DNA of 64,000 nucleotides from a virus: the IMG/VR virus record IMGVR_UViG_3300035438_000194, positions 1 to 64,000 of that record; one strand, given 5' to 3'. A model generated the notes under the pieces. That model was not told where the DNA came from and made no database searches. It was given only the letters and a program-made list of their open reading frames with translations. Position 1 is the stretch's first letter. The number at the start of each line of letters is the position of its first letter. Shown here one piece after another: positions 5,105 through 15,233 of the stretch. Both the position numbers and the translations under genes were made by a program.

Positions 5105-6508
5105 CTAATCCAACTTGATACAACTGTATCTATCAGAGTTAACGGTCTTTAGCATTACTGCTAACGGATTCAAATCATCACCACCTAATACAGACTTGAT
5201 AATGCTCGGACTATATCCGCTCACAAGTGCAGTGTTTGGTGTGTCAACCTTCACAGGTACATTACCCAATCTACCATTCACATTCCAAAAGATTATACCT
5301 GGCATCTGATAGCCTGCAGCAGCATACATACCCTTGATTGCATCAAAGTTAGTACGTCTATCACACGCTTGGTCAAACTCCATATCACTGATAATCAGTA
5401 ACTTGGTTGGCATATCTTCCTGTGATACTTTACCTGCAATTGCACGGTTAAGTAACACATTGAATGTCTTGAATAAGTCAGTGTTCATACCCCAATCTGC
5501 TTGACGTAGGTTAACTACTCTCTCTGCAAGAGTATTACCTTGTATCAGGCGGAACTGTGGACTCTCACTAAACGTCAATACTAAATCCTTGAAAGGACCT
5601 TCATTGCGTTCAGAGATATACAAACCTAACCCGATTGATACGTCCATTGGTGTACCCATCATACTACCTGATACATCACAGATTGGTAAGATACGCTCTG
5701 TACAACCTTCCATATAATTAGGTAAAGACTTCCACATAGCATCATATGCTGCTGCGTTAGACTCTTCACCCCAATTCATATTTGTGATCTTGTTAACAAT
5801 ATCACTTGGAAACAGTACCGAAGCGTTCATCTTCTGTTTACCTTCCATAACATCACTGATATAAGAACTGTATCTTACACCATCGTGCTTGGTAAAAGAG
5901 TTACTATATCTCTTTCCTGCAACAGATGGAACTGTACTATACTGAATAGTTTCCCATTCATTAGCACACATCTTCTGCTCAACAGTATTAGACATAGCAG
6001 TTAGTCTTCTACGGAAGGTACCCGCTGATACATTGAGGTACTTATGCATAGCAACAAACCATTCACCTTTACGGGGAAACCATTTGGCTAACAGATTAGC
6101 ATTCTCATTCTCCTTCAGTTGGTGGTCCAACCAATTAAGAGTATTATCACTCGGTCTTTCAATGATGAAGATGTCTTTCCAATAACCAAACACAGGTATA
6201 TGTATAGCAACTTGCTCATACACATCTGGGAATGATATCAAAAGACTTCTCATTATCACTTGGAAGAAACGCTTCTCACCTGCACCACCGCGTGCATCAC
6301 GTGCCCAAAATACTATCTTAAGAGCAGTAAGTTTATCTTCACGATAAGCCCTGATAAATGCTTTTATGATATCTTCTTCAGGCATAAAACGGCTCGCACC
6401 TGCTATAAAGAACAGGTCAATACAGAAATTACCCGCAGTACTATGTGTAACTGCTCCGTTATTGGTAAGACTGTCATTAGAAAACATTGCGTTGGTAAAA
6501 GTATCCAT
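5105..6508 (-). CDS. DUF2828-family protein (TROVE/Ro60-like helical domain + VWA domain)
   Basis: TNNGA, RDARGGAGEK, GYWKD, AKWFPR, MIDAS-type CDVSGSM, ISDMEFD and IIFWNV motifs; likelier start MDTFTN at 6508. Confidence 0.85.
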   Translation of the reverse strand: MDTFTNAMFSNDSLTNNGAVTHSTAGNFCIDLFFIAGASRFMPEEDIIKAFIRAYREDKLTALKIVFWARDARGGAGEKRFFQVIMRSLLISFPDVYEQVAIHIPVFGYWKDIFIIERPSDNTLNWLDHQLKENENANLLAKWFPRKGEWFVAMHKYLNVSAGTFRRRLTAMSNTVEQKMCANEWETIQYSTVPSVAGKRYSNSFTKHDGVRYSSYISDVMEGKQKMNASVLFPSDIVNKITNMNWGEESNAAAYDAMWKSLPNYMEGCTERILPICDVSGSMMGTPMDVSIGLGLYISERNEGPFKDLVLTFSESPQFRLIQGNTLAERVVNLRQADWGMNTDLFKTFNVLLNRAIAGKVSQEDMPTKLLIISDMEFDQACDRRTNFDAIKGMYAAAGYQMPGIIFWNVNGRLGNVPVKVDTPNTALVSGYSPSIIKSVLGGDDLNPLAVMLKTVNSDRYSCIKLD

Positions 6509-6573
6509 TGCTTTAAGGGTTTTGGTTAAACAAATTATGAGATTGGTAGGCCACGGTATCACTACTCGGCTTT

Positions 6574-6842
6574 GCACATACTACAGAATGAAGAGAGCCT
6601 AACAGTTAACTGTTGTGACCTACCATCTCGTTTTGCATTGTATTTTTTTTACAGTGCTGATTCATTCTTTAATGTGCGGGGTTATCTTATGCTAAACAGA
6701 ATAGTTGTTTAACCTTATTATAATTGTAGTTTTAATAGTGCTGAACTATACTTCACTAACATAAGACGGGTTGTAAAGATACAGAATGCAGTTTAACTTA
6801 CCATAGTTTTTTATAGTGCGGTTAACATTCTTCACTTTACAA
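6574..6842 (-). ncRNA. Three tandem structured RNA modules upstream of DUF2828
   Basis: Units 6574-6677, 6685-6766, 6771-6842: variable outer stem, internal loop, AGWAU/AUUCU inner stem, C(A/C)GCACU, AU-rich loop. Confidence 0.7.
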
Positions 6843-6936
6843 TAGGGTACGTGATAATCAGTAAAGGTGCAGGGGGCTACCCATTTTTTGAACCTTGCGG
6901 GTTTTTACCGCTTCTGCATTACCACAATATGAGTAG

Positions 6937-7101
6937 TTATAACATATCAAGAATCGGTAACTCATCATCTTCATCACTAATAACTTTGCGGTAGTTATCA
7001 TCATCACACATAAGAGAGTAAACAGAGTAGAAATCTAACTTACTAATAGAGGAGTAGACTATCAGAGCAGTAGGCTTATGTACTAATAGGTAGGTAATCA
7101 T
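6937..7101 (-). CDS. Small hypothetical protein (54 aa)
   Basis: Manual translation MITYLLVHKPTALIVYSS...DDELPILDML*. Confidence 0.5.
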   Translation of the reverse strand: MITYLLVHKPTALIVYSSISKLDFYSVYSLMCDDDNYRKVISDEDDELPILDML

Positions 7102-7233
7102 AGTTTTTTAATTTGCTATATATTACAGTAATTGTACTATAAGGGTGATTTTCAGTGAGTTGTAACTGTTACAAGAGTGCAGTGTGTGTTGCTGTCACAC
7201 ACACTAACACGCTTATAATCAATTAGTTAACCA

Positions 7234-7698
7234 CTAAAATATGGTTGGGTCAGGGTTTTCACTCTGATTCACTACCACTTCCTTCTGAACAGGTGCTTGG
7301 TTCAATTGTGGACGCTTTGTACCACCTGCAAGACCTCTAATCTCCAAATATCTTTGAGCCTGTGCGGTTGCAACTGCTGCCTGCATTGCTGGAGACTTGC
7401 GTAATGCACCTTCTAACTCAAAAGTCTCAAGGTCACCGTTAACAACACTGCCATTTTCAGTAATGACAAGGTCTGTAGCGTAATCACCTATCTTTTTGCA
7501 ACCGTGTTTATCCCACAATGTTACTCGTGGAACTTCCATAATGTCACCGTTTAACTCTACCATATCACTACGGAAGTTCTCACCTTTGTTTTTCTTGATT
7601 GCTGCAATCTCTTCATCTGTACAGTTGTACAAGTGGAAGGTGTAACAAGGTGTGCCTGTACCTTTTGCAAGGTAGAAATTGTTCAATTTTGCTTTCAT
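7234..7698 (-). CDS. Hypothetical protein, probable paralog of 8155..8595
   Basis: 154 aa; shares KSPA, AQxYL and a PTxF C-terminus with 8155..8595. Confidence 0.75.
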   Translation of the reverse strand: MKAKLNNFYLAKGTGTPCYTFHLYNCTDEEIAAIKKNKGENFRSDMVELNGDIMEVPRVTLWDKHGCKKIGDYATDLVITENGSVVNGDLETFELEGALRKSPAMQAAVATAQAQRYLEIRGLAGGTKRPQLNQAPVQKEVVVNQSENPDPTIF

Positions 7699-8116
7699 AA
7701 GCTGTTGATTTTGAGGGTTTTAAGTTATTAAATTGTTTATTGTTAACTGACACATCTATGAGGAAGTGCAAATTATTAAGGAAAGTAGTCGGGGAAGAAA
7801 GAGGCAGATAGGGACAGGACAGAGCAATAGGATTACAAGAATGAGCAGTTTGCTAACTGACTGATTATCAGTACCAAGTTATCAGTTTTCCCAGAGTAGT
7901 ATACTAACAACCTGCTATGTTAGGAATCCAATAGTCTGACATATGAGTAGTAATAGAGTAGTAAGTTAATAGCCTGTTAGATACTGACCACTGCATACTG
8001 TCTGCTGTTAGGCTGTGTACGCATTTCAATCATTAAGGACCGTAGTCGGGGAGGAAGGCACACGTTAATGTCCACGCATAAGGTCACGCATTGCCCTGTT
8101 GTGCAGAGGTGATAGT

Positions 8117-8150
8117 AAAAACCCCACGCACCGTAAGGCACGCAGGGTTT
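8117..8150 (-). terminator. Hairpin/terminator after 8155..8595
   Basis: 15-bp stem AAAACCCUGCGUGCC/GGUGCGUGGGGUUUU that pairs fully (with G-U) only on the - strand. Confidence 0.7.
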
Positions 8151-8154
8151 TAAG

Positions 8155-8595
8155 TTAGAAGGCGGTAGGTGGAAGGTCACTGTTCACTTCAATTTCAACA
8201 GGTTCTTCTTGGAACTGCATCAAGTATTGAGCACGGGCTTTTCCTTCAAGCATAGCAAAGCCACGGTCAGTATTAGCCAACGCAGGGCTTTTTGCTACCA
8301 AAGAGTCAAGGAATGATTCTTCCGTCTTCAAAGGATACCACGAGAATTTGCCATTCTTACCCGTTGAGCGTCTGACAATAATTTCAGCACCCAAATTGTC
8401 ATTGCAACGGAAGGAAGGTTTTCCCGCGTTAGGTCCTACACTGATATCACCGCTGTAATAAGATTTCCCGTTTTCAGGGTTTACACCGCAGTCATCAATG
8501 TATTGGGCTTTGGAGTCAGCGTCCATACCAATAATAGCATAAAAGAATTTACCCGTCTTGGAAGGGTTGTCATAAACGGCTTTGAATTGTGCCAT
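8155..8595 (-). CDS. Hypothetical protein, probable paralog of 7234..7698
   Basis: 146 aa ORF; 12-mer 34 nt upstream. Confidence 0.75.
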   Translation of the reverse strand: MAQFKAVYDNPSKTGKFFYAIIGMDADSKAQYIDDCGVNPENGKSYYSGDISVGPNAGKPSFRCNDNLGAEIIVRRSTGKNGKFSWYPLKTEESFLDSLVAKSPALANTDRGFAMLEGKARAQYLMQFQEEPVEIEVNSDLPPTAF

Positions 8596-8892
8596 AGGTT
8601 AAAAAAGTTTAAAGGGTTAACATTAGAAGATTAAGGACTTTGAAAGCACAGGCAACACGCAGCGTCTCCCGCTAACCCCCGATATAGAAGGTGTGTGAGG
8701 TAGGAAAGAGGCTGTGTGTGTGCAGTTCATTAAGGACTTTGACGCAGAGGAGTAGTAGGTAAACCACCCTAACTTCCGCGCTTGGGCCACGGTAATACAA
8801 CAGGACAGAGCACCCACAACGGAGTACCCTGTCCAACACAGCAGGACCCCGATTAGAGTGCACTGCTGTGTTTGTTTTAGTAACGAGCCTTA

Positions 8893-9192
8893 TCAGAAGC
8901 AACCTACAACATTAGCAACAGTATCCGCAGATGACTGTCTCGCAAGTTGTGCTGCCTCCATAAGTTGAACTGATAAGAACTCGGTTGTGATAATCTCCTT
9001 GAAACTCTCAAGGGCATTGTCGCCATATTCACCACGGGCTATAGAATACAAGGCATTTGCGACATTGTCAGCCTTATTTCTGATACCAATGGTGTCAGGT
9101 TTGAAACTCAATAAGAGTTCCGTTAATAATGCAGAGTCAATTGACACTGCTTCTCTACCCGCGCAGGATAAGATTGGTTGGTCTTTTTTCAT
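8893..9192 (-). CDS. Small early hypothetical protein
   Basis: 99 aa; 12-mer 21 nt upstream. Confidence 0.75.
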   Translation of the reverse strand: MKKDQPILSCAGREAVSIDSALLTELLLSFKPDTIGIRNKADNVANALYSIARGEYGDNALESFKEIITTEFLSVQLMEAAQLARQSSADTVANVVGCF

Positions 9193-9247
9193 AACTTTAG
9201 TTTAGTTTAAATCATTAAGGACTTTGAGGACAGAGAGGAGGAAGGCC

Positions 9248-9481
9248 CTAAAGCCCACCATACATCTCACTGTAATCATCACCGTGCATATAGTCTATCT
9301 CATCTTCCATAAAGTTAGACTCAATGTTACCTATTGGTTTACGCACGGTAATAGGTTTGTTTGCTAACAGACCTTCATAGTAGGCAATTATGTGACCTAC
9401 ACTGATTCCGTTTAACACTTTACCGTCAAGTAAGTTAGTAAACTTACGCTCTGTTTCTTTTAACGCTGTTTCTTTGTCCAT
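9248..9481 (-). CDS. Small early hypothetical protein
   Basis: 77 aa; AT-rich leader, no 12-mer of its own. Confidence 0.7.
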   Translation of the reverse strand: MDKETALKETERKFTNLLDGKVLNGISVGHIIAYYEGLLANKPITVRKPIGNIESNFMEDEIDYMHGDDYSEMYGGL

Positions 9482-9524
9482 ATATAAGGTTTAAAAGTTT
9501 ACATAAGAAAGAGATAGCACAAGG

Positions 9525-9743
9525 TTACATACCCTGTGCTGTCTCATACGCAGATATTTCTGTTTCAATCTGCTCTTGGAAGTGTTCTGCAAGTCTTTCA
9601 AACCTGCGTATAACAGATACTGTTGCAAAGTCTTCTTCAAATGAGAGGGACTCGGCACTCTCACTTGCTAAATAGTCTCTGTCTGACTTGATTTCAGCCT
9701 GAATATAGGCTACTACTTCCATTAATACTGATGCTTTGTTCAT
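9525..9743 (-). CDS. Small acidic early protein
   Basis: 72 aa; 12-mer 16 nt upstream; stop inside a hairpin. Confidence 0.75.
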   Translation of the reverse strand: MNKASVLMEVVAYIQAEIKSDRDYLASESAESLSFEEDFATVSVIRRFERLAEHFQEQIETEISAYETAQGM

Positions 9744-9799
9744 ACTGTTATTTTGTTTGATTAAGGACTTTTAAAAGAAAAGCACAAGGGAGTTACCCC

Positions 9800-10012
9800 T
9801 TATGCCTGAACACCATAAGTGTCATCTTCAACCACCATTTCAATAAAGTCCTTGCTAATGAACTTGATTTCAATAGGCTCTATCAAACCTTTGCAGTATT
9901 GAAAGGTAGTAAGAGCATCAATGATGCTGTCACCTGCAACATAAAGAATTTCTTCTACACCTTTGTAAAGGTGATGCGGGTAAGTAATTAAGTACAAGTT
10001 TTTTGTTCTCAT
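9800..10012 (-). CDS. Small early hypothetical protein
   Basis: 70 aa; 12-mer 17 nt upstream. Confidence 0.75.
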   Translation of the reverse strand: MRTKNLYLITYPHHLYKGVEEILYVAGDSIIDALTTFQYCKGLIEPIEIKFISKDFIEMVVEDDTYGVQA

Positions 10013-10084
10013 ATTATTAGATTTGAACCATTAAGGACTTTGTATTAGATAAGAACACAGCCCCCTATTACGAGGGCTATGTTA

Positions 10085-10408
10085 TTAGTTTGACAATTCA
10101 GCAGCGTCAAGTTCCGCTTGAAGTTCATCAGTTACAGGCAGTGTGAATACAATATGTCCTGAACATACTTGCATTTTACCGTCTTTAACATAGAACCCAA
10201 TACCTGAAGTACACTTGTGCCCGTCAGGTTGAACAAGTACAACAGTGCAAGAATAGTGGTCCCAACCTACGAACTCCGTATCAAAGAAGATTGTGCCTTC
10301 TCTGTATACTGTCTTACGCAGTGGTCCAACTTCACCTGTTGGCGTTTCACCATAGTTGTCTGAACCTTCTTTAAAGGCTTTGATTGCAATTTCTGATAAG
10401 TTTTTCAT
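10085..10408 (-). CDS. Small early hypothetical protein
   Basis: 107 aa; 12-mer 24 nt upstream. Confidence 0.75.
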   Translation of the reverse strand: MKNLSEIAIKAFKEGSDNYGETPTGEVGPLRKTVYREGTIFFDTEFVGWDHYSCTVVLVQPDGHKCTSGIGFYVKDGKMQVCSGHIVFTLPVTDELQAELDAAELSN

Positions 10409-10466
10409 AATAAAAGGTATTAATTTTAAATCATTAAGGACTTTGTGCTAAAAGAAAACCACGGTG

Positions 10467-10670
10467 TTACCCGTGATTCTCCTGTGCACGCATCTCTCTC
10501 ACTTGGAATACAACTATCCAAGTGATAAAGGCGGTGATGATACCAAAGAATATGTTCATTGGTGTTGACAGCTCTCTTACTTCTTCATTACAGGTGAAGT
10601 TGATGATATACAAGATTGTAATAGCATCTAATAGAGCAATGATTGAGATGATGAGGGTGAATAGTCTCAT
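10467..10670 (-). CDS. Small two-TM membrane protein
   Basis: Likelier start MRLFTLII at 10670; two hydrophobic helices. Confidence 0.7.
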   Translation of the reverse strand: MRLFTLIISIIALLDAITILYIINFTCNEEVRELSTPMNIFFGIITAFITWIVVFQVREMRAQENHG

Positions 10671-10692
10671 AGGTTTATAATTGATTAAGAGT

Positions 10693-10845
10693 TTACCACC
10701 AATTGGTACCGCGAGAATTGTAGTTCCCGTTGTGTTTAGGTTGAAATGTATCGTGACAACTGTGTGTGGTTGCACAAGATGTGAGCATTGCTACTATTAA
10801 GATGGTTGCAATGTAGAGTAGAGCATAGGCTGTTGACTTTTTCAT
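10693..10845 (-). CDS. Small lipoprotein (50 aa, lipobox LTSC)
   Basis: Manual translation MKKSTAYALLYIATILIVAMLTSCATTHSCHDTFQPKHNGNYNSRGTNWW*; 12-mer 19 nt upstream. Confidence 0.8.
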   Translation of the reverse strand: MKKSTAYALLYIATILIVAMLTSCATTHSCHDTFQPKHNGNYNSRGTNWW

Positions 10846-10950
10846 AGGGTTATAATTTACATTGATTAAGGACTTTTGTGCTAACAGAGTAGTAGGCCAA
10901 AAGACCTAACTTCTGCCCTTGGGGCCCAGAGGCGCTAACACACCACGAGA

Positions 10951-11136
10951 TTAACTCTCGGGTGCATCAGCATTGCCAATGGCTTTATTAACAAGTAAGT
11001 TGAATAACAACTCACCCGTAGGTAAGATGTGTATTTCAAACTTCTTGATGTGACCTGTGGTCAACCAAGTGTTAATCTTCTGTTGCATCTTCTTGTGGTC
11101 TGCAACAGGAACTATTTCAAATTGAACTTTATACAT
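10951..11136 (-). CDS. Small early hypothetical protein
   Basis: 61 aa; 12-mer 17 nt upstream. Confidence 0.75.
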   Translation of the reverse strand: MYKVQFEIVPVADHKKMQQKINTWLTTGHIKKFEIHILPTGELLFNLLVNKAIGNADAPES

Positions 11137-11227
11137 AGGTTTACATTTGAATCATTAAGGACTTTTGTGAGCGTGAGTGGGAAGGAGAGAGGTGATAGTA
11201 AAAAATAGAAACCTACCACCCCTTCAA

Positions 11228-11377
11228 CTACTCTGTTATCTCATACCACGTGTCATCCTTCCGCACTACCTTATAGGTAATAGTTCCGTCTTCATTGAGT
11301 CTAACATCTCTAATGAAGTCACCGCGGAATCTCTTCTTGAGACCCGCGATGATTTGTGTTAGGCTGTTAACTCGCAT
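11228..11377 (-). CDS. Small hypothetical protein (49 aa)
   Basis: Manual translation MRVNSLTQIIAGLKKRFRGDFIRDVRLNEDGTITYKVVRKDDTWYEITE*; overlaps the end of the upstream gene. Confidence 0.6.
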   Translation of the reverse strand: MRVNSLTQIIAGLKKRFRGDFIRDVRLNEDGTITYKVVRKDDTWYEITE

Positions 11378-11553
11378 AACTTCTTCATCAAGTAAAGGTT
11401 ATACAGCAACAGGGCTTCCGCAGGTGCTTCAAACATTCTCTCAAATGATTGAGCATCAATAGGTTGCTTGGTTATAGTTGTATACAACTTGCAATTCAGG
11501 ACACATAGGTCTCTACGCTGTTTTGCAGTAAGCGTGATTTTCTCTTGTACCAT
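11359..11553 (-). CDS. Small early hypothetical protein
   Basis: Likelier start MVQEK at 11553, 15 nt after a 12-mer. Confidence 0.7.
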   Translation of the reverse strand: MVQEKITLTAKQRRDLCVLNCKLYTTITKQPIDAQSFERMFEAPAEALLLYNLYLMKKLCELTA

Positions 11554-11600
11554 ATTATATTTTAAACTATTAAGGACTTTATACAACAAGCATAAGCCCC

Positions 11601-11795
11601 CTAAGAAGGGAGCTCAGCTGTTGGTTCTATTCTGAAGGCAAAGCAGGTAAGGTCTCCGAAGTCTCCTTCAGAGAATTGCCATTTGATTGTCTCTGCTTTC
11701 TCAAGTGAATCGCAAATTGTTGAATGCGTCTCAATTGTTTCTTCTGCATCTCCTTCATAGGTGATGGCTGTCTTGTAAGTCAGTTTGTAGTGCAT
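11601..11795 (-). CDS. Small acidic early protein
   Basis: 64 aa; one-mismatch 12-mer 15 nt upstream. Confidence 0.75.
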   Translation of the reverse strand: MHYKLTYKTAITYEGDAEETIETHSTICDSLEKAETIKWQFSEGDFGDLTCFAFRIEPTAELPS

Positions 11796-11845
11796 AATGT
11801 TATTTCAATCATTAAGGATTTTACACACAAAAGAAAGGAAGAGGC

Positions 11846-12031
11846 CTAAGCCTCAACCTCATTACAACCATAGAGCTCAGCCTTCCGTTGGACTAACCTT
11901 GCCTCTACATCATCAAGCGCACTAATATAACCGTCAGAATATTCATCCATACCGTTGGCCCTAATATCTTCCCAGGTATTCTTAATAGCGTCCTTAACAA
12001 TAGCAATAGCCAAATCTAAATCTGTTTTCAT
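11846..12031 (-). CDS. Small early hypothetical protein
   Basis: Likelier start MKTDL at 12031, 16 nt after a 12-mer. Confidence 0.75.
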   Translation of the reverse strand: MKTDLDLAIAIVKDAIKNTWEDIRANGMDEYSDGYISALDDVEARLVQRKAELYGCNEVEA

Positions 12032-12076
12032 AATGTTATTTAAAAGCATTAAGGACTTTACAATCAGAGAACAGGG

Positions 12077-12304
12077 TTATTCACCCTGCTCATCTGTTGC
12101 ATTGAAGAACTCGAGTTCCCCACACTCACATAGGTTGTCATCATAAGTAAAGACTCCCGTCTCTAACCACTGATAGACTTCACCTTCACAAGCGTCATAC
12201 ACCCAATCATATTGGTTGTTAACATCAATGTGAATATTGTACAGCGGACCGTGCTGCTCCATTCTACCCGTCATAAGGTAGAAGATAATAAATAAAGACT
12301 TCAT
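12077..12304 (-). CDS. Small acidic early protein
   Basis: 75 aa; degenerate 12-mer upstream. Confidence 0.7.
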   Translation of the reverse strand: MKSLFIIFYLMTGRMEQHGPLYNIHIDVNNQYDWVYDACEGEVYQWLETGVFTYDDNLCECGELEFFNATDEQGE

Positions 12305-12458
12305 ACTATAAGGTTTAAATGATTACGGAGTTAAAACATATTACTTCCGCACCGTAGGTCCGCCTAAGTCTTCATTGAAGAGACCGCATATGGCAAGAGT
12401 TATCTCGGCTACCCTAGTCTGTAACAGACGCAGAAGTAATAGTTAAAGAAGAGAGAGG

Positions 12459-12662
12459 CTAAAAGCCCCCCTCTTGGTTCATCAACTTAGCCACGTGGCT
12501 TGGGTCAACAAAGCGTTTGGTTATCTTGAATGCTGCTGCAGGTGGACAGCTGTCAAGATATTGTTGCGCTAAGAATGCGCTATGTTTAGTGGTTGAAGTC
12601 CATTGAAGGCGTTCAACTTCTGTACCCTTGTGGTCAAGGATGTAAGCAAAGTAAAGTGTCAT
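12459..12662 (-). CDS. Small early hypothetical protein
   Basis: 67 aa; 12-mer 17 nt upstream. Confidence 0.75.
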   Translation of the reverse strand: MTLYFAYILDHKGTEVERLQWTSTTKHSAFLAQQYLDSCPPAAAFKITKRFVDPSHVAKLMNQEGGF

Positions 12663-12733
12663 ATCTGTTATTTGAATGCATTAAGGACTTTCCATCACGC
12701 TGAGAGAGCGAGGGGATTTCTCCCCCTCTCTCA

Positions 12734-12958
12734 TCACATCTTGTTGATGATACTTCTGATTTGAGTCAGTTGCTTTACAACATCAGGCTGTGCCTCTCTA
12801 AGTTCTTCAACAAGAATTTCATAGGCATCTTCAAGACCTCTGCGTACGCCCAATTGGAATTGTTCATCATCCTTTGGAAACGCGTTTATGCTAAGACGTC
12901 TTTCTTGTTGTTTGATTGCAGAATCAACCGTGAAGGTTGCAATAAGTAAATGGTTCAT
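12734..12958 (-). CDS. Small early hypothetical protein
   Basis: Likelier start MNHLL at 12958, 18 nt after a 12-mer. Confidence 0.75.
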   Translation of the reverse strand: MNHLLIATFTVDSAIKQQERRLSINAFPKDDEQFQLGVRRGLEDAYEILVEELREAQPDVVKQLTQIRSIINKM

Positions 12959-13011
12959 AGTATTATATTTGAATTGATTAAGGACTTTACTATACAATCA
13001 AATGAACCCCC

Positions 13012-13251
13012 TTAGAAAGGAGGTCCATCTGGAAATGATGCAGCCCAACGCTCAGCATCACGTTGCTTTTGGTGTTCAGTGTTACACTTAGGACAATAGT
13101 CTTCAAAGCCAACTATCTCATAGTTATCAGTGACTATTGGGTCAAACTCTTGGCCTGTCTCATCAAAGTCGTGATAGATAACCACAGGCTTCTTGATGAA
13201 GTTTGTTTCTTCTTGCATGCAGCATAGGCATATTGAACTTTCTGTTTGCAT
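13012..13251 (-). CDS. Small early protein with two Cys clusters (possible Zn-binding)
   Basis: Likelier start MQTES at 13251, 18 nt after a 12-mer; CLCC...CPKC. Confidence 0.7.
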   Translation of the reverse strand: MQTESSICLCCMQEETNFIKKPVVIYHDFDETGQEFDPIVTDNYEIVGFEDYCPKCNTEHQKQRDAERWAASFPDGPPF

Positions 13252-13584
13252 AATGTTGTTATTTAACTCATTAAGGACTTTCATACATATACATCTCTGC
13301 CTCGCTCGCTCCCTCCCTCCTCTCTCTGTGCTTGTGCTTGGCTCGTTGTTCCTGGCCACGTCAGACCATCCATCTCACTCAGACCACAAACTTTCTTCTG
13401 CCACAGCTTTTTTTTGCAACATCTGTCTAATAGGTAAATTGAGCCTTGCCATTTGATAGGGGGTACCACCCTTTGGAAAGTTTTGCCGGGGATTGTTTTG
13501 GATCCACCCATTACATCCTCTCACACAGTAAAAATCCCCCACACCAGATCAGCCCAGGGGTGTCCCGATAAACCTTACTACCCG

Positions 13585-14022: not shown

Positions 14023-14589
14023 TTATAATGTGATTTGCCTAGCTCTTTTACCAATGACCTTTGTCTTAAGATCTACCGCTTTAAGTGCCAGTACACATTT
14101 CTGAATAACTGCTAAACTTACGTTATCCCCTTTTTCTAATAGAGAGAGGGTAGACCTTGATACTCCCATTAATTCGGATAGCTGCTGTTGGGTTAATTTT
14201 CTACACAACCTTTCTTTTTTTAGTATAGATGATATGTTATGCATGATTCTAAACAATCCATCAAAGTCTTTTGCGTCATCATCTGATCTTGTTTCTACTA
14301 ACTGCCCCGGCATTAGCATTATATTAAGCAAGCTGGGATTTATGTCATAGTAGTAACCTATCCAGTATTTTTCTCTATCAGCTAGATCGTTAATATCCTT
14401 TACCTCTTCTATGATATCTATTTTGGGGTATAGCCAGTTCTCTTCTAGAGTTTTTACCCAATCATTAACGTGCGAAGAATGTGACTTAGTTAAATGTTGC
14501 AGAGGTCTTTTCTCACCTACCGTGCTTTTGCCTATGTACTGGTATACATCATTTCTGGGATCTCTTAGTCCATAGATTATGTTCTTCAT
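14023..14589 (-). CDS. GIY-YIG nuclease fused to an XRE-type HTH domain
   Basis: IIYGL...YQYIGKS at the N-terminus, REKYWI; C-terminal LTQQQLSELMGVSRSTLSLLEKG. Confidence 0.8.
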   Translation of the reverse strand: MKNIIYGLRDPRNDVYQYIGKSTVGEKRPLQHLTKSHSSHVNDWVKTLEENWLYPKIDIIEEVKDINDLADREKYWIGYYYDINPSLLNIMLMPGQLVETRSDDDAKDFDGLFRIMHNISSILKKERLCRKLTQQQLSELMGVSRSTLSLLEKGDNVSLAVIQKCVLALKAVDLKTKVIGKRARQITL

Positions 14590-14613: not shown

Positions 14614-14621
14614 CAAAGGTA
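14614..14621 (-). promoter_or_regulatory. Bacteroidota -7 element TACCTTTG
   Basis: TAnnTTTG 24 nt upstream of ATG 14589. Confidence 0.6.
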
Positions 14622-14939: not shown

Positions 14940-15233
14940 ATGTCATTATTTAAACAACTACGTGGTAAACGCGTAATGATTCAGAAGCCTGAGCCAGAGA
15001 CTAAGAACTCTCTCGTACAACTTACCCCAGAGATTGAAGCACAACTTGAAAAGGAAGCTATTGCTAAGTGGACCCGTCTTACAGTATATGCTGTAGGTAC
15101 AGATGTTGCTGATATCAAAGCTGGTGATGAGGTATATATCACACCAGGTATCTTAGCTACAGCAGAGATCTTCAAAGTTGAAGAAGAAGTATTTATGATT
15201 GTACCGGAACACGCGGTTGCAATCTTGTATTGA
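14940..15233 (+). CDS. GroES/Cpn10-like co-chaperonin
   Basis: 97 aa; LRGKRVMI, VYAVG, IKAGDEVY and IVPEHAVAI parallel GroES motifs. Confidence 0.7.
   Translation: MSLFKQLRGKRVMIQKPEPETKNSLVQLTPEIEAQLEKEAIAKWTRLTVYAVGTDVADIKAGDEVYITPGILATAEIFKVEEEVFMIVPEHAVAILY

Follow-up and report, generated by a model that had tools for sequence, protein, structure and literature searches.

Organization of the locus

The DNA analyzed here (the window) is the first 64 kb (64,000 nucleotides) of the IMG/VR virus record IMGVR_UViG_3300035438_000194, the 113,846-bp genome of a lake crAss-like phage that we call G000, and our subject is an array of small gene units on its minus strand, most of them headed by an invariant 12-mer, AAAGTCCTTAAT. 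Rightward genes occupy approximately 15.7-88 kb and comprise the structural genes together with three giant open reading frames (ORFs) of 2919, 4063 and 1849 aa. Leftward genes cover the remainder and include a replication module with primase, DnaB, UDG and a SNF2-type helicase, in which a match to family-B DNA polymerase was weak and sub-threshold. The array lies at the head of this leftward (replication/early) arm. The large terminase shares approximately 25% identity with the terminases of Crassvirales and of Flavobacterium and Cellulophaga crAss-like phages, and the portal, major capsid and terminase proteins match PHROGs. A megablast search of the array and the structural arm against GenBank phages returned no match, and neither did Rfam (E<=1) and tRNA scans of positions 1-16 kb and of the window. 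Overall, G000 is a divergent crAss-like phage. Its record ends in a 122-bp terminal overlap, in agreement with a circular assembly; this repeat was considered as a guide to the end at which the DNA enters the cell and was rejected, because the records of the relatives are circularly permuted and the repeat is therefore an assembly overlap.

Thirteen exact copies of AAAGTCCTTAAT lie between positions 8630 and 13281, all of them on the minus strand, as compared to 0.02 expected from dinucleotide shuffles, and none was found outside the array in the whole 113,846-bp record (Table 1). Three variant copies, AAAATCCTTAAT, ACGGTCCTTAAT and ACTTTCCTTAAT, complete the array; the last two are each preceded by CCCCGACT, and paired variant copies are present at the matching place in two relatives, G006 and L215. 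An earlier note on this DNA had described exact copies and variants in one orientation over approximately 5.5 kb, starting at position 7775 and absent from the structural arm. That description holds in full, and its start coordinate is explained by the variant ACTTTCCTTAAT at 7786-7775.

The 12-mer is only the first part of a rigid element of 21 nt, which continues with 5 nt and a TAAAT-like box (consensus gatTtAAAt). The 5' boundary of the 12-mer is sharp and the box keeps a constant position relative to the 12-mer, while the ATG follows at a variable distance of 15 to 35 nt: this distance is 15-24 nt from the end of the motif in 12 units, as the earlier note had stated for most of them, and 34-35 nt in two. 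Downstream of the box comes a leader of approximately 10-15 nt, and leaders contain about 76% A+T. Such AT-rich leaders are expected for translation starts in Bacteroidota, which lack a Shine-Dalgarno sequence. The motif is not palindromic and the core has no self-complementarity, 30-nt windows on the core showing no folding potential (-0.13 kcal/mol as compared to -1.14 kcal/mol for random windows). The sequence preceding each motif behaves differently, as the 45 nt upstream fold at -5.7 kcal/mol, against -2.4 kcal/mol for controls. In fact, 13 of the 15 units end in a strong hairpin (-15 to -25 kcal/mol, calculated on their final 60 nt), which in most cases is GC-rich and carries a tail rich in T or pyrimidines, and which stops approximately 10-20 nt before the next 12-mer. 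A terminator scan returned 14 sites, 13 of them on the minus strand, as compared to 5.6±2.2 in shuffled sequences. These hairpins differ from one another in sequence and in their spacing to the motif.

Neither the -35/-10 nor the -33/-7 host promoter consensus was found in the array units, and a sigma70 promoter scan showed no enrichment. The Bacteroidota -7 element, TAnnTTTG, occurs at -70 to -5 of 11 of the 98 non-array ORFs (2.9 expected) and heads none of the array units, which bears out the earlier statement that the motif is unlike the promoter used elsewhere in the window. It is also present upstream of the array, at 14621 and 13674.

Each motif is usually followed by one small ORF, with a second one in four units; the first ORFs encode 50-107 aa, within the 50-110 aa previously described, and the ORF behind the last exact copy encodes 146 aa. 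No paralogy among the array ORFs of G000 was found at E<1e-4, so that the genes are indeed unrelated to each other, and neither Pfam (13 array ORFs scanned) nor PHROGs (10 also scanned) gave a significant match. Since all array ORFs are ORFans, the label of host-takeover or anti-defence genes proposed for them is a guess. One unit, number 13, carries no ORF at all between its motif and the next one, so that a tandem motif pair precedes the 146-aa gene (family F6), and this double-motif arrangement is kept in four relatives (G006, L215, L313 and L315). The existence of a conserved motif-headed unit without an ORF favors a transcriptional over a translational signal.

Table 1. Array units and associated features. 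Positions are those of the window, except where genome positions are indicated; motifs are given 5' to 3', so that the second number is the plus-strand start.
Feature	Extent	Strand	Motif	ATG and ORF(s)	Remarks
Unit 1	13012..13281	minus	13281-13270	ATG 13251, 79 aa	replaced by other ORF in L313
Unit 2	12734..12988	minus	12988-12977	ATG 12958, 74 aa	upstream hairpin 13022-13007
Unit 3	12077..12691	minus	12691-12680	12662-12459 (67 aa); 12304-12077 (75 aa, F1)	
Unit 4	11846..12059	minus	12059-12048	ATG 12031, 61 aa	
Unit 5	11601..11822	minus	11822-11811, variant AAAATCCTTAAT	ATG 11795, 64 aa	variant also in L313
Unit 6	11228..11580	minus	11580-11569	11553-11359 (64 aa); 11377-11228 (49 aa)	
Unit 6 terminal hairpin	~11225-11190	minus			GGGGTGGTAG...CTATCACCTCT
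Unit 7	10951..11165	minus	11165-11154	ATG 11136, 61 aa (F3)	
Unit 8	10467..10876	minus	10876-10865	ATG 10845, 50 aa (F4); second small ORF	
Unit 8 terminator	10470-10445	minus			hairpin plus T-run
Unit 9	10085..10444	minus	10444-10433	ATG 10408, 107 aa (F5)	best-conserved array gene
Unit 10	9800..10041	minus	10041-10030	ATG 10012, 70 aa	
Unit 11	9248..9771	minus	9771-9760	9743-9525 (72 aa); 9481-9248 (77 aa)	block replaced in L313
Unit 12	8893..9225	minus	9225-9214	ATG 9192, 99 aa (F13)	
Unit 13	8642..8740	minus	8740-8729		87 nt without ORF, then next motif
Unit 14	8155..8641	minus	8641-8630	ATG 8595, 146 aa (F6, 8155-8595)	
Variant copy		minus	8043-8032, ACGGTCCTTAAT		mostly non-coding sequence after
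Variant copy		minus	7786-7775, ACTTTCCTTAAT		76 nt before ATG (7698) of conserved 154-aa gene
Conserved downstream module	5105..7698	minus		154-aa gene (7234-7698); small ORFs; DUF2828/DUF7788 gene (5105-6577)	
Clear intergenic TAnnTTTG		plus		before ORFs at 14940, 21542, 29986, 39525	
Clear intergenic TAnnTTTG		minus		before ORFs at 14589, 1339	
Virion RNA polymerase ORF	genome 68664-80855	plus		4063 aa	outside the window; DFDID at residue 2244

Alleles of the motif in related phages

Relatives were retrieved as whole genomes or by means of either a conserved flanking gene or F5, the best-conserved gene of the array, and in their homologous arrays every copy of the motif has switched together. 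In G006, a 116-kb genome in which most proteins are 75-96% identical to those of G000, the motif reads AAACTCCTTACT (allele B) and is present in 9-10 copies confined to its own array. The shorter contigs L215 and L217 carry 10-12 copies of AAACTCTTTACT, the 34.5-kb contig L312 carries 11 copies of TAACTGTGyyTTACT (TAACTGTG..TTACT), and the 113-kb genome G007 has 6 copies of ATATTTACTTAAA, again confined to its own array. In each of these relatives, the copies stand after a terminator hairpin and before a TAAAT or TTAAT box and an ATG. Moreover, orthologues of F3, F4, F5, F6, F12 and F13 are always found behind the resident allele, which differs between phages (F3, for instance, follows the phages' own motif alleles in G006 and L312), and F5 orthologues from 21 metagenome loci each have a lineage-specific motif upstream, the motifs forming a graded series. 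As the copies are identical within a genome and differ at 1-3 positions between close relatives, and as the allele has switched in concert also where the genes behind it are orthologous, it is probably the phage that encodes the reader. On these sequence comparisons, a conserved host component (sigma factor, ribosome or host RNase) is an unlikely reader. Anatomy and comparison together support the earlier proposals that the units are self-contained and that they are headed by a phage-private signal unlike the host promoter. When IMG/VR was scanned by pattern for more arrays of allele A (AAAGTCCTTAAT) or B, chance single matches only were obtained, apart from G006.

A 1.1-kb metagenome contig, L328, encodes an F5 orthologue that shares just 50% identity with its G000 counterpart, and the motif upstream of it is AAACTCTTTACT, the exact allele of L215; therefore, alleles do not simply track the divergence of the neighboring gene.

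Other repeated motifs were observed in further relatives. In the complete relative G001 (locus L221), positions 5671-5915 of the minus strand hold five copies of TACTATGGAC(T/A) within approximately 250 nt of non-coding DNA, which replaces the promoter array and may contain regulator binding sites or an origin. In four distant relatives (L287, L288, L290 and L293), the conserved flanking gene is followed on the rightward strand by 8-12 AACCTTTAACCCTT-type motifs, which may represent another lineage-specific promoter class.

Cassette exchange between relatives

L313, a 7-kb contig from another metagenome, carries the same allele as G000 (13 exact copies plus the AAAATCCTTAAT variant) at 91-99% nucleotide identity. 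Two whole cassettes, units 1 and 11, have been replaced between these two phages, and both replacements are bounded by the motif-plus-leader and by the next motif. Identity runs through the 12-mer and the leader to the ATG, disappears across the ORF with its hairpin, and is regained 43 nt (unit 1) and 15 nt (unit 11) before the next 12-mer. Unit 1 of G006 holds the same ORF that has taken the place of the unit-1 gene in L313. Cassettes have also changed places: the unit-10 gene of G000, which stands after F5, has its orthologue before F5 in L315 (allele B), and both blocks are motif-bounded, while the F1 gene of unit 3 sits at other array places in G006, L215 and L312, amounting to four positions in four arrays. 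In addition, two alignment blocks between G000 and G006 consist of terminator and motif alone, with unrelated genes on both sides.

The same tendency was observed in the ends of high-scoring segment pairs (HSPs), which were required to span at least 100 nt because shorter motif-to-motif cross-matches would inflate the breakpoint statistic. Internal HSP ends fell within -45 to +40 of a motif start in 22 of 34 cases, with 8.1 expected. The comparative alignments thus place breakpoints at the motif, in agreement with its suggested role as a crossover point. No tyrosine or serine recombinase was found in a six-frame search in which the controls were positive, and general recombination at the repeated 20-30 nt would therefore be the simplest mechanism. 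The promoter-early stem-loop (PeSL) cassettes of T4-type phages offer a precedent for general recombination at cassettes (PMC2839356).

Candidate reader of the element

A six-frame search of the whole genome for sigma70 regions 2 and 4 (Sigma70_r2/r4) found none, with positive controls, and a corresponding search for a T7-like RNA polymerase (RNAP) was equally negative, its T7-like control being uninformative. The only RNAP found in the genome is a two-barrel enzyme fused into the 4063-aa protein encoded on the rightward arm. A profile of the center of this ORF, built from seven relatives, matched gp66 of phage phi14:2 (PDB 6VR4) at E=7e-29, with the catalytic DFDID aligned. In phi14:2, gp66 is reported to be packaged in the virion and to make early transcripts despite rifampicin (bioRxiv 10.1101/2020.03.07.982082).

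The virion RNAP (vRNAP) is also strongly diverged: between G000 and G006 it retains 40% identity, as compared to mostly 75-96% for other proteins. Wherever vRNAPs differ the alleles differ as well, but every genome compared differs in both. No close relatives of the vRNAP were found in IMG/VR, and no same-allele vRNAP pair occurs among the genomes compared. The giant ORFs are among the most diverged genes of the genome, with F6 and a few other ORFs lower still. As a group, the three giant ORFs (genome 59884-86406, plus strand) show 45%, 40% and 57% identity between G000 and G006, and 25-28% identity to those of G001.

The gene context adds to this picture. The DUF2828/DUF7788 gene of the conserved module downstream of the array, co-directional with it, encodes a TROVE/vWA-like protein that belongs to PHROG 850, annotated as 'RNA-binding protein', and shows weak but collinear similarity to the crAss001 TROVE protein gp96, including the DVSGSM vWA motif. 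The early operon of crAss001 likewise includes a TROVE gene (PMC8375218). In the vicinity of the G000 gene, Rfam gave no Y-RNA-like match. Taken together, the lack of a sigma factor or a T7-like RNAP, the gp66-type match, the divergence of the polymerase and the TROVE-like early context make the virion RNAP the best candidate reader, and, judging from sequence, it is most likely this enzyme that reads the element.

Proposed mechanism and alternative explanations

We propose, with a probability of roughly 0.6, that the array is made of phage-specific early promoter-terminator cassettes that are read by the virion RNAP and that also serve as recombination anchors. The region would consist of approximately 15 autonomous transcription units heading the leftward early arm. 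At each border, a hairpin resembling an intrinsic terminator, GC-rich and with a pyrimidine- or T-rich tail, would close the preceding unit, and the 21-nt element would follow as a contiguous double-stranded promoter, its upstream portion conferring specificity and its AT-rich portion serving initiation, a logic of the T7 type in which transcription would presumably start near the latter. Beyond the AT-rich leader, each unit would supply a single small ORFan gene or at times a pair of them, except that one unit would yield a short non-coding RNA. The element would be recognized by a reader that the phage itself encodes, the 4063-aa virion RNAP being the most likely one; if this polymerase is delivered with the DNA, as its homology to phi14:2 gp66 suggests, it could transcribe the array genes before any phage protein is made. 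As the same 20-30 nt recur at every unit border, they could double as a homology anchor, at which general recombination, within a genome or between co-infecting relatives, would replace, permute, gain or lose cassettes of ORF plus terminator. Exchanged cassettes would always end up behind the promoter allele of the resident phage. The more specific proposal, in which the 21-nt element is the promoter of the crAss-type two-barrel vRNAP and its alleles (AAAGTCCTTAAT, AAACTCCTTACT, AAACTCTTTACT and others) co-evolve with a hypervariable polymerase, appears to us an even bet.

Several observations weigh against this proposal. G001 encodes a vRNAP and has no clear array motif, and the early region of crAss001 contains no comparable repeated k-mer; a signal of this kind is thus no common property of the polymerase family. 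The HSP ends do not represent independent events, and breakpoints at gene borders are expected anyway under selection for intact genes. In addition, the early transcripts of phi14:2, the one crAss-like phage examined by experiment, are reported to have no common upstream motif (bioRxiv 10.1101/2020.03.07.982082). The vRNAP is, moreover, not the only gene product that follows the allele, since F6 does so as well, with 96% identity in the same-allele L313 and 34% in the allele-B G006 and L315.

The behavior of F6 leads to the alternative that the promoter is read by the host RNAP, redirected by a phage specificity factor, which could be a virion protein or an early protein unlike sigma70, such as F6 itself. 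The two tandem motifs ahead of F6 would fit this explanation, and so would the absence of a reported promoter motif for the phi14:2 vRNAP. Nevertheless, we consider it unlikely, as no sigma70 region 2 or 4 was found in any of the six frames, the units are devoid of the host -7/-33 elements, and a factor made early could not start its own expression. Furthermore, F6 has no recognizable DNA-binding domain, although its AlphaFold2 model (pLDDT 37) was unusable and an ESM Atlas search gave no lead, so that neither is informative. A somewhat smaller chance is given to the element acting in RNA, with the hairpins and the 12-mer of a long early transcript serving as processing, stability or translation-control sites for a phage RNA-binding protein or nuclease, comparable to T4 RegB/RegA or T7 RNase III. 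The position of the motif 15-24 nt before most start codons, the TROVE-like RNA-binding protein encoded just downstream and the host-type TAnnTTTG promoters upstream of the array at 14621 and 13674 are all compatible with it. However, the hairpins are short and GC-rich, with T-rich tails, and look like terminators rather than RNase III sites, the box is fixed relative to the 12-mer and not to the ATG, and besides the unit lacking an ORF, two variant copies stand ahead of long non-coding stretches. The TROVE-like protein is, moreover, 84% identical between two alleles and thus does not track them.

The invariance of the 12-mer, its restriction to one phage and the concerted switching of its copies would also suit an operator for a phage-specific DNA-binding regulator, for example in early shut-off, that overlaps other promoters. 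This is very unlikely in our view, because no second conserved promoter-like element exists besides the box 5 nt downstream, and because the motif, unlike most operators, is not palindromic. We give least credit to the idea that the repeats are site-specific recombination sites of an integron-like cassette system: cassettes have indeed been replaced and permuted with breakpoints at the repeats, but no tyrosine or serine recombinase was found in the six frames, the sites are neither imperfect palindromes nor of attC-like form, and every copy is positioned as an expression signal. Early promoter-terminator cassettes read by the virion RNAP thus remain our preferred explanation.

Further features of the array and its flanks

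Two motif-headed stretches of the array are devoid of ORFs, one of 87 nt (8642-8740) and the other of approximately 340 nt (7699-8043) behind two CCCCGACTAC-type variants. It is their arrangement, and not their sequence, that is kept in G006 and L215, and both are candidates for early non-coding RNAs. Early non-coding RNAs are described as abundant in phi14:2 (bioRxiv 10.1101/2020.03.07.982082).

A second conserved element, TTTTTACTATCACCTCT, occurs on the minus strand at 11200, 8117 and 498, and also in G001, G006, G007 and L215. In two of the three window copies (11200 and 498) it forms the 3' arm of a hairpin, GGGGTG(G/A)TAG...CTATCACC, with G-U/A-U variation, while the copy at 8117 has a different hairpin upstream. 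Unlike the 12-mer, it is unchanged across phages with different promoter alleles; possible roles are those of a sequence-specific terminator or of some other regulatory site.

Just upstream of the array, a 188-aa ORF (14023-14589, minus strand) combines a sub-threshold N-terminal GIY-YIG match (21.6 bits, for a cut-off of 22.6 bits) with an above-threshold C-terminal Xre-type helix-turn-helix (HTH); a TAnnTTTG promoter of its own lies at 14621. This would be the layout of a free-standing homing endonuclease, provided that the GIY-YIG match is genuine. The ORF is absent from the collinear L313 and G006 and is therefore a presence/absence insertion. As the only HTH protein nearby, it was considered as the regulator that an operator would need, and was rejected on account of its being a GIY-YIG-like insertion missing from two phages that keep the array.

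Relation to known systems and significance

The closest functional parallel may be found in the PeSL cassettes of the T4-type phages RB49 and phi1 (Arbiol et al. 2010, PMC2839356). These are also modules of an early promoter and a stem-loop terminator, repeated through a hyperplastic region of small ORFans, and indels and replacements between close relatives are bounded by them. However, the PeSL promoters are described there as strong and sigma70-like, of the host type, whereas the array signal fits the consensus of neither sigma70 nor Bacteroidota promoters, belongs to a single lineage and switches in all copies together. Its promoter logic recalls the T7 group, with their specificity alleles in T7, T3 and SP6 and their contiguous double-stranded promoter from -17 to +6 (PMC4496689). 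Both are invariant, non-palindromic elements of approximately 20 nt in which a specificity part precedes an AT-rich part close to the presumed start; both are restricted to the phage genome, keep one orientation and come in alleles that differ at few positions. The polymerase, nevertheless, is of another kind, as G000 encodes a crAss-type two-barrel enzyme and no T7-like RNAP was found, within the limits of the uninformative control. Overall, by analogy, the array would resemble PeSL in function and evolution and the T7 group in promoter logic, with polymerase and promoter type different from those of the respective systems.

Coliphage N4 is comparable in that a giant, DNA-delivered polymerase is presumed to read phage-specific early promoters (PMC4496689). 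The N4 promoter is a short hairpin, with a GC-rich heptamer centered at -11, flanking inverted repeats and conserved stem and loop bases (PMC4496689), while the array core has no self-complementarity and the hairpins near it vary in sequence and distance, so that it does not form an N4-type hairpin promoter. Furthermore, N4 has three such promoters, against approximately 15 monocistronic units here, and its polymerase is of a different fold. The nearest precedent for a conserved early motif paired with a two-barrel virion RNAP is Thermus phage P23-45 (PMC10770324), in which a conserved motif upstream of the first-expressed genes has been assigned to a two-barrel virion RNAP fused to the tape-measure protein. 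The pre-early promoters of P23-45 are AT-rich, relatives without the polymerase lack the motif, and a sequence-conserved terminator motif is also present (PMC10770324). P23-45 belongs to another phage group and has another motif, and its starts were mapped by ONT-cappable-seq and ChIP. Among crAss-like phages, the early operons of phi14:2 and crAss001 share with G000 the gp66-type vRNAP homologue, the small early genes on one arm and the TROVE-like gene in the block. They differ in that the signal of G000 is invariant and multiplied, no common early motif being reported for phi14:2 or found by us in crAss001. Denatured and single-stranded DNA served as templates in the assays of the purified phi14:2 enzyme (bioRxiv 10.1101/2020.03.07.982082).

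The array offers a candidate promoter for the injected polymerase of crAss-like phages, which are among the most abundant phages known, and bears on how this enzyme finds its genes. With an exact sequence, natural alleles 1-3 positions apart and matched divergent polymerases in hand, this question becomes testable by in vitro transcription. If the more specific proposal, in which the alleles co-evolve with the polymerase, is true, these phages would hold natural orthogonal polymerase-promoter pairs, and early cassettes swapped between them would stay under the control of the resident phage. Moreover, the locus shows, at the resolution of single cassettes, that fast-turnover early ORFans are exchangeable between relatives; these likely act in host takeover or counter-defence, and every copy observed to date stands behind the signal of the phage in which it resides.

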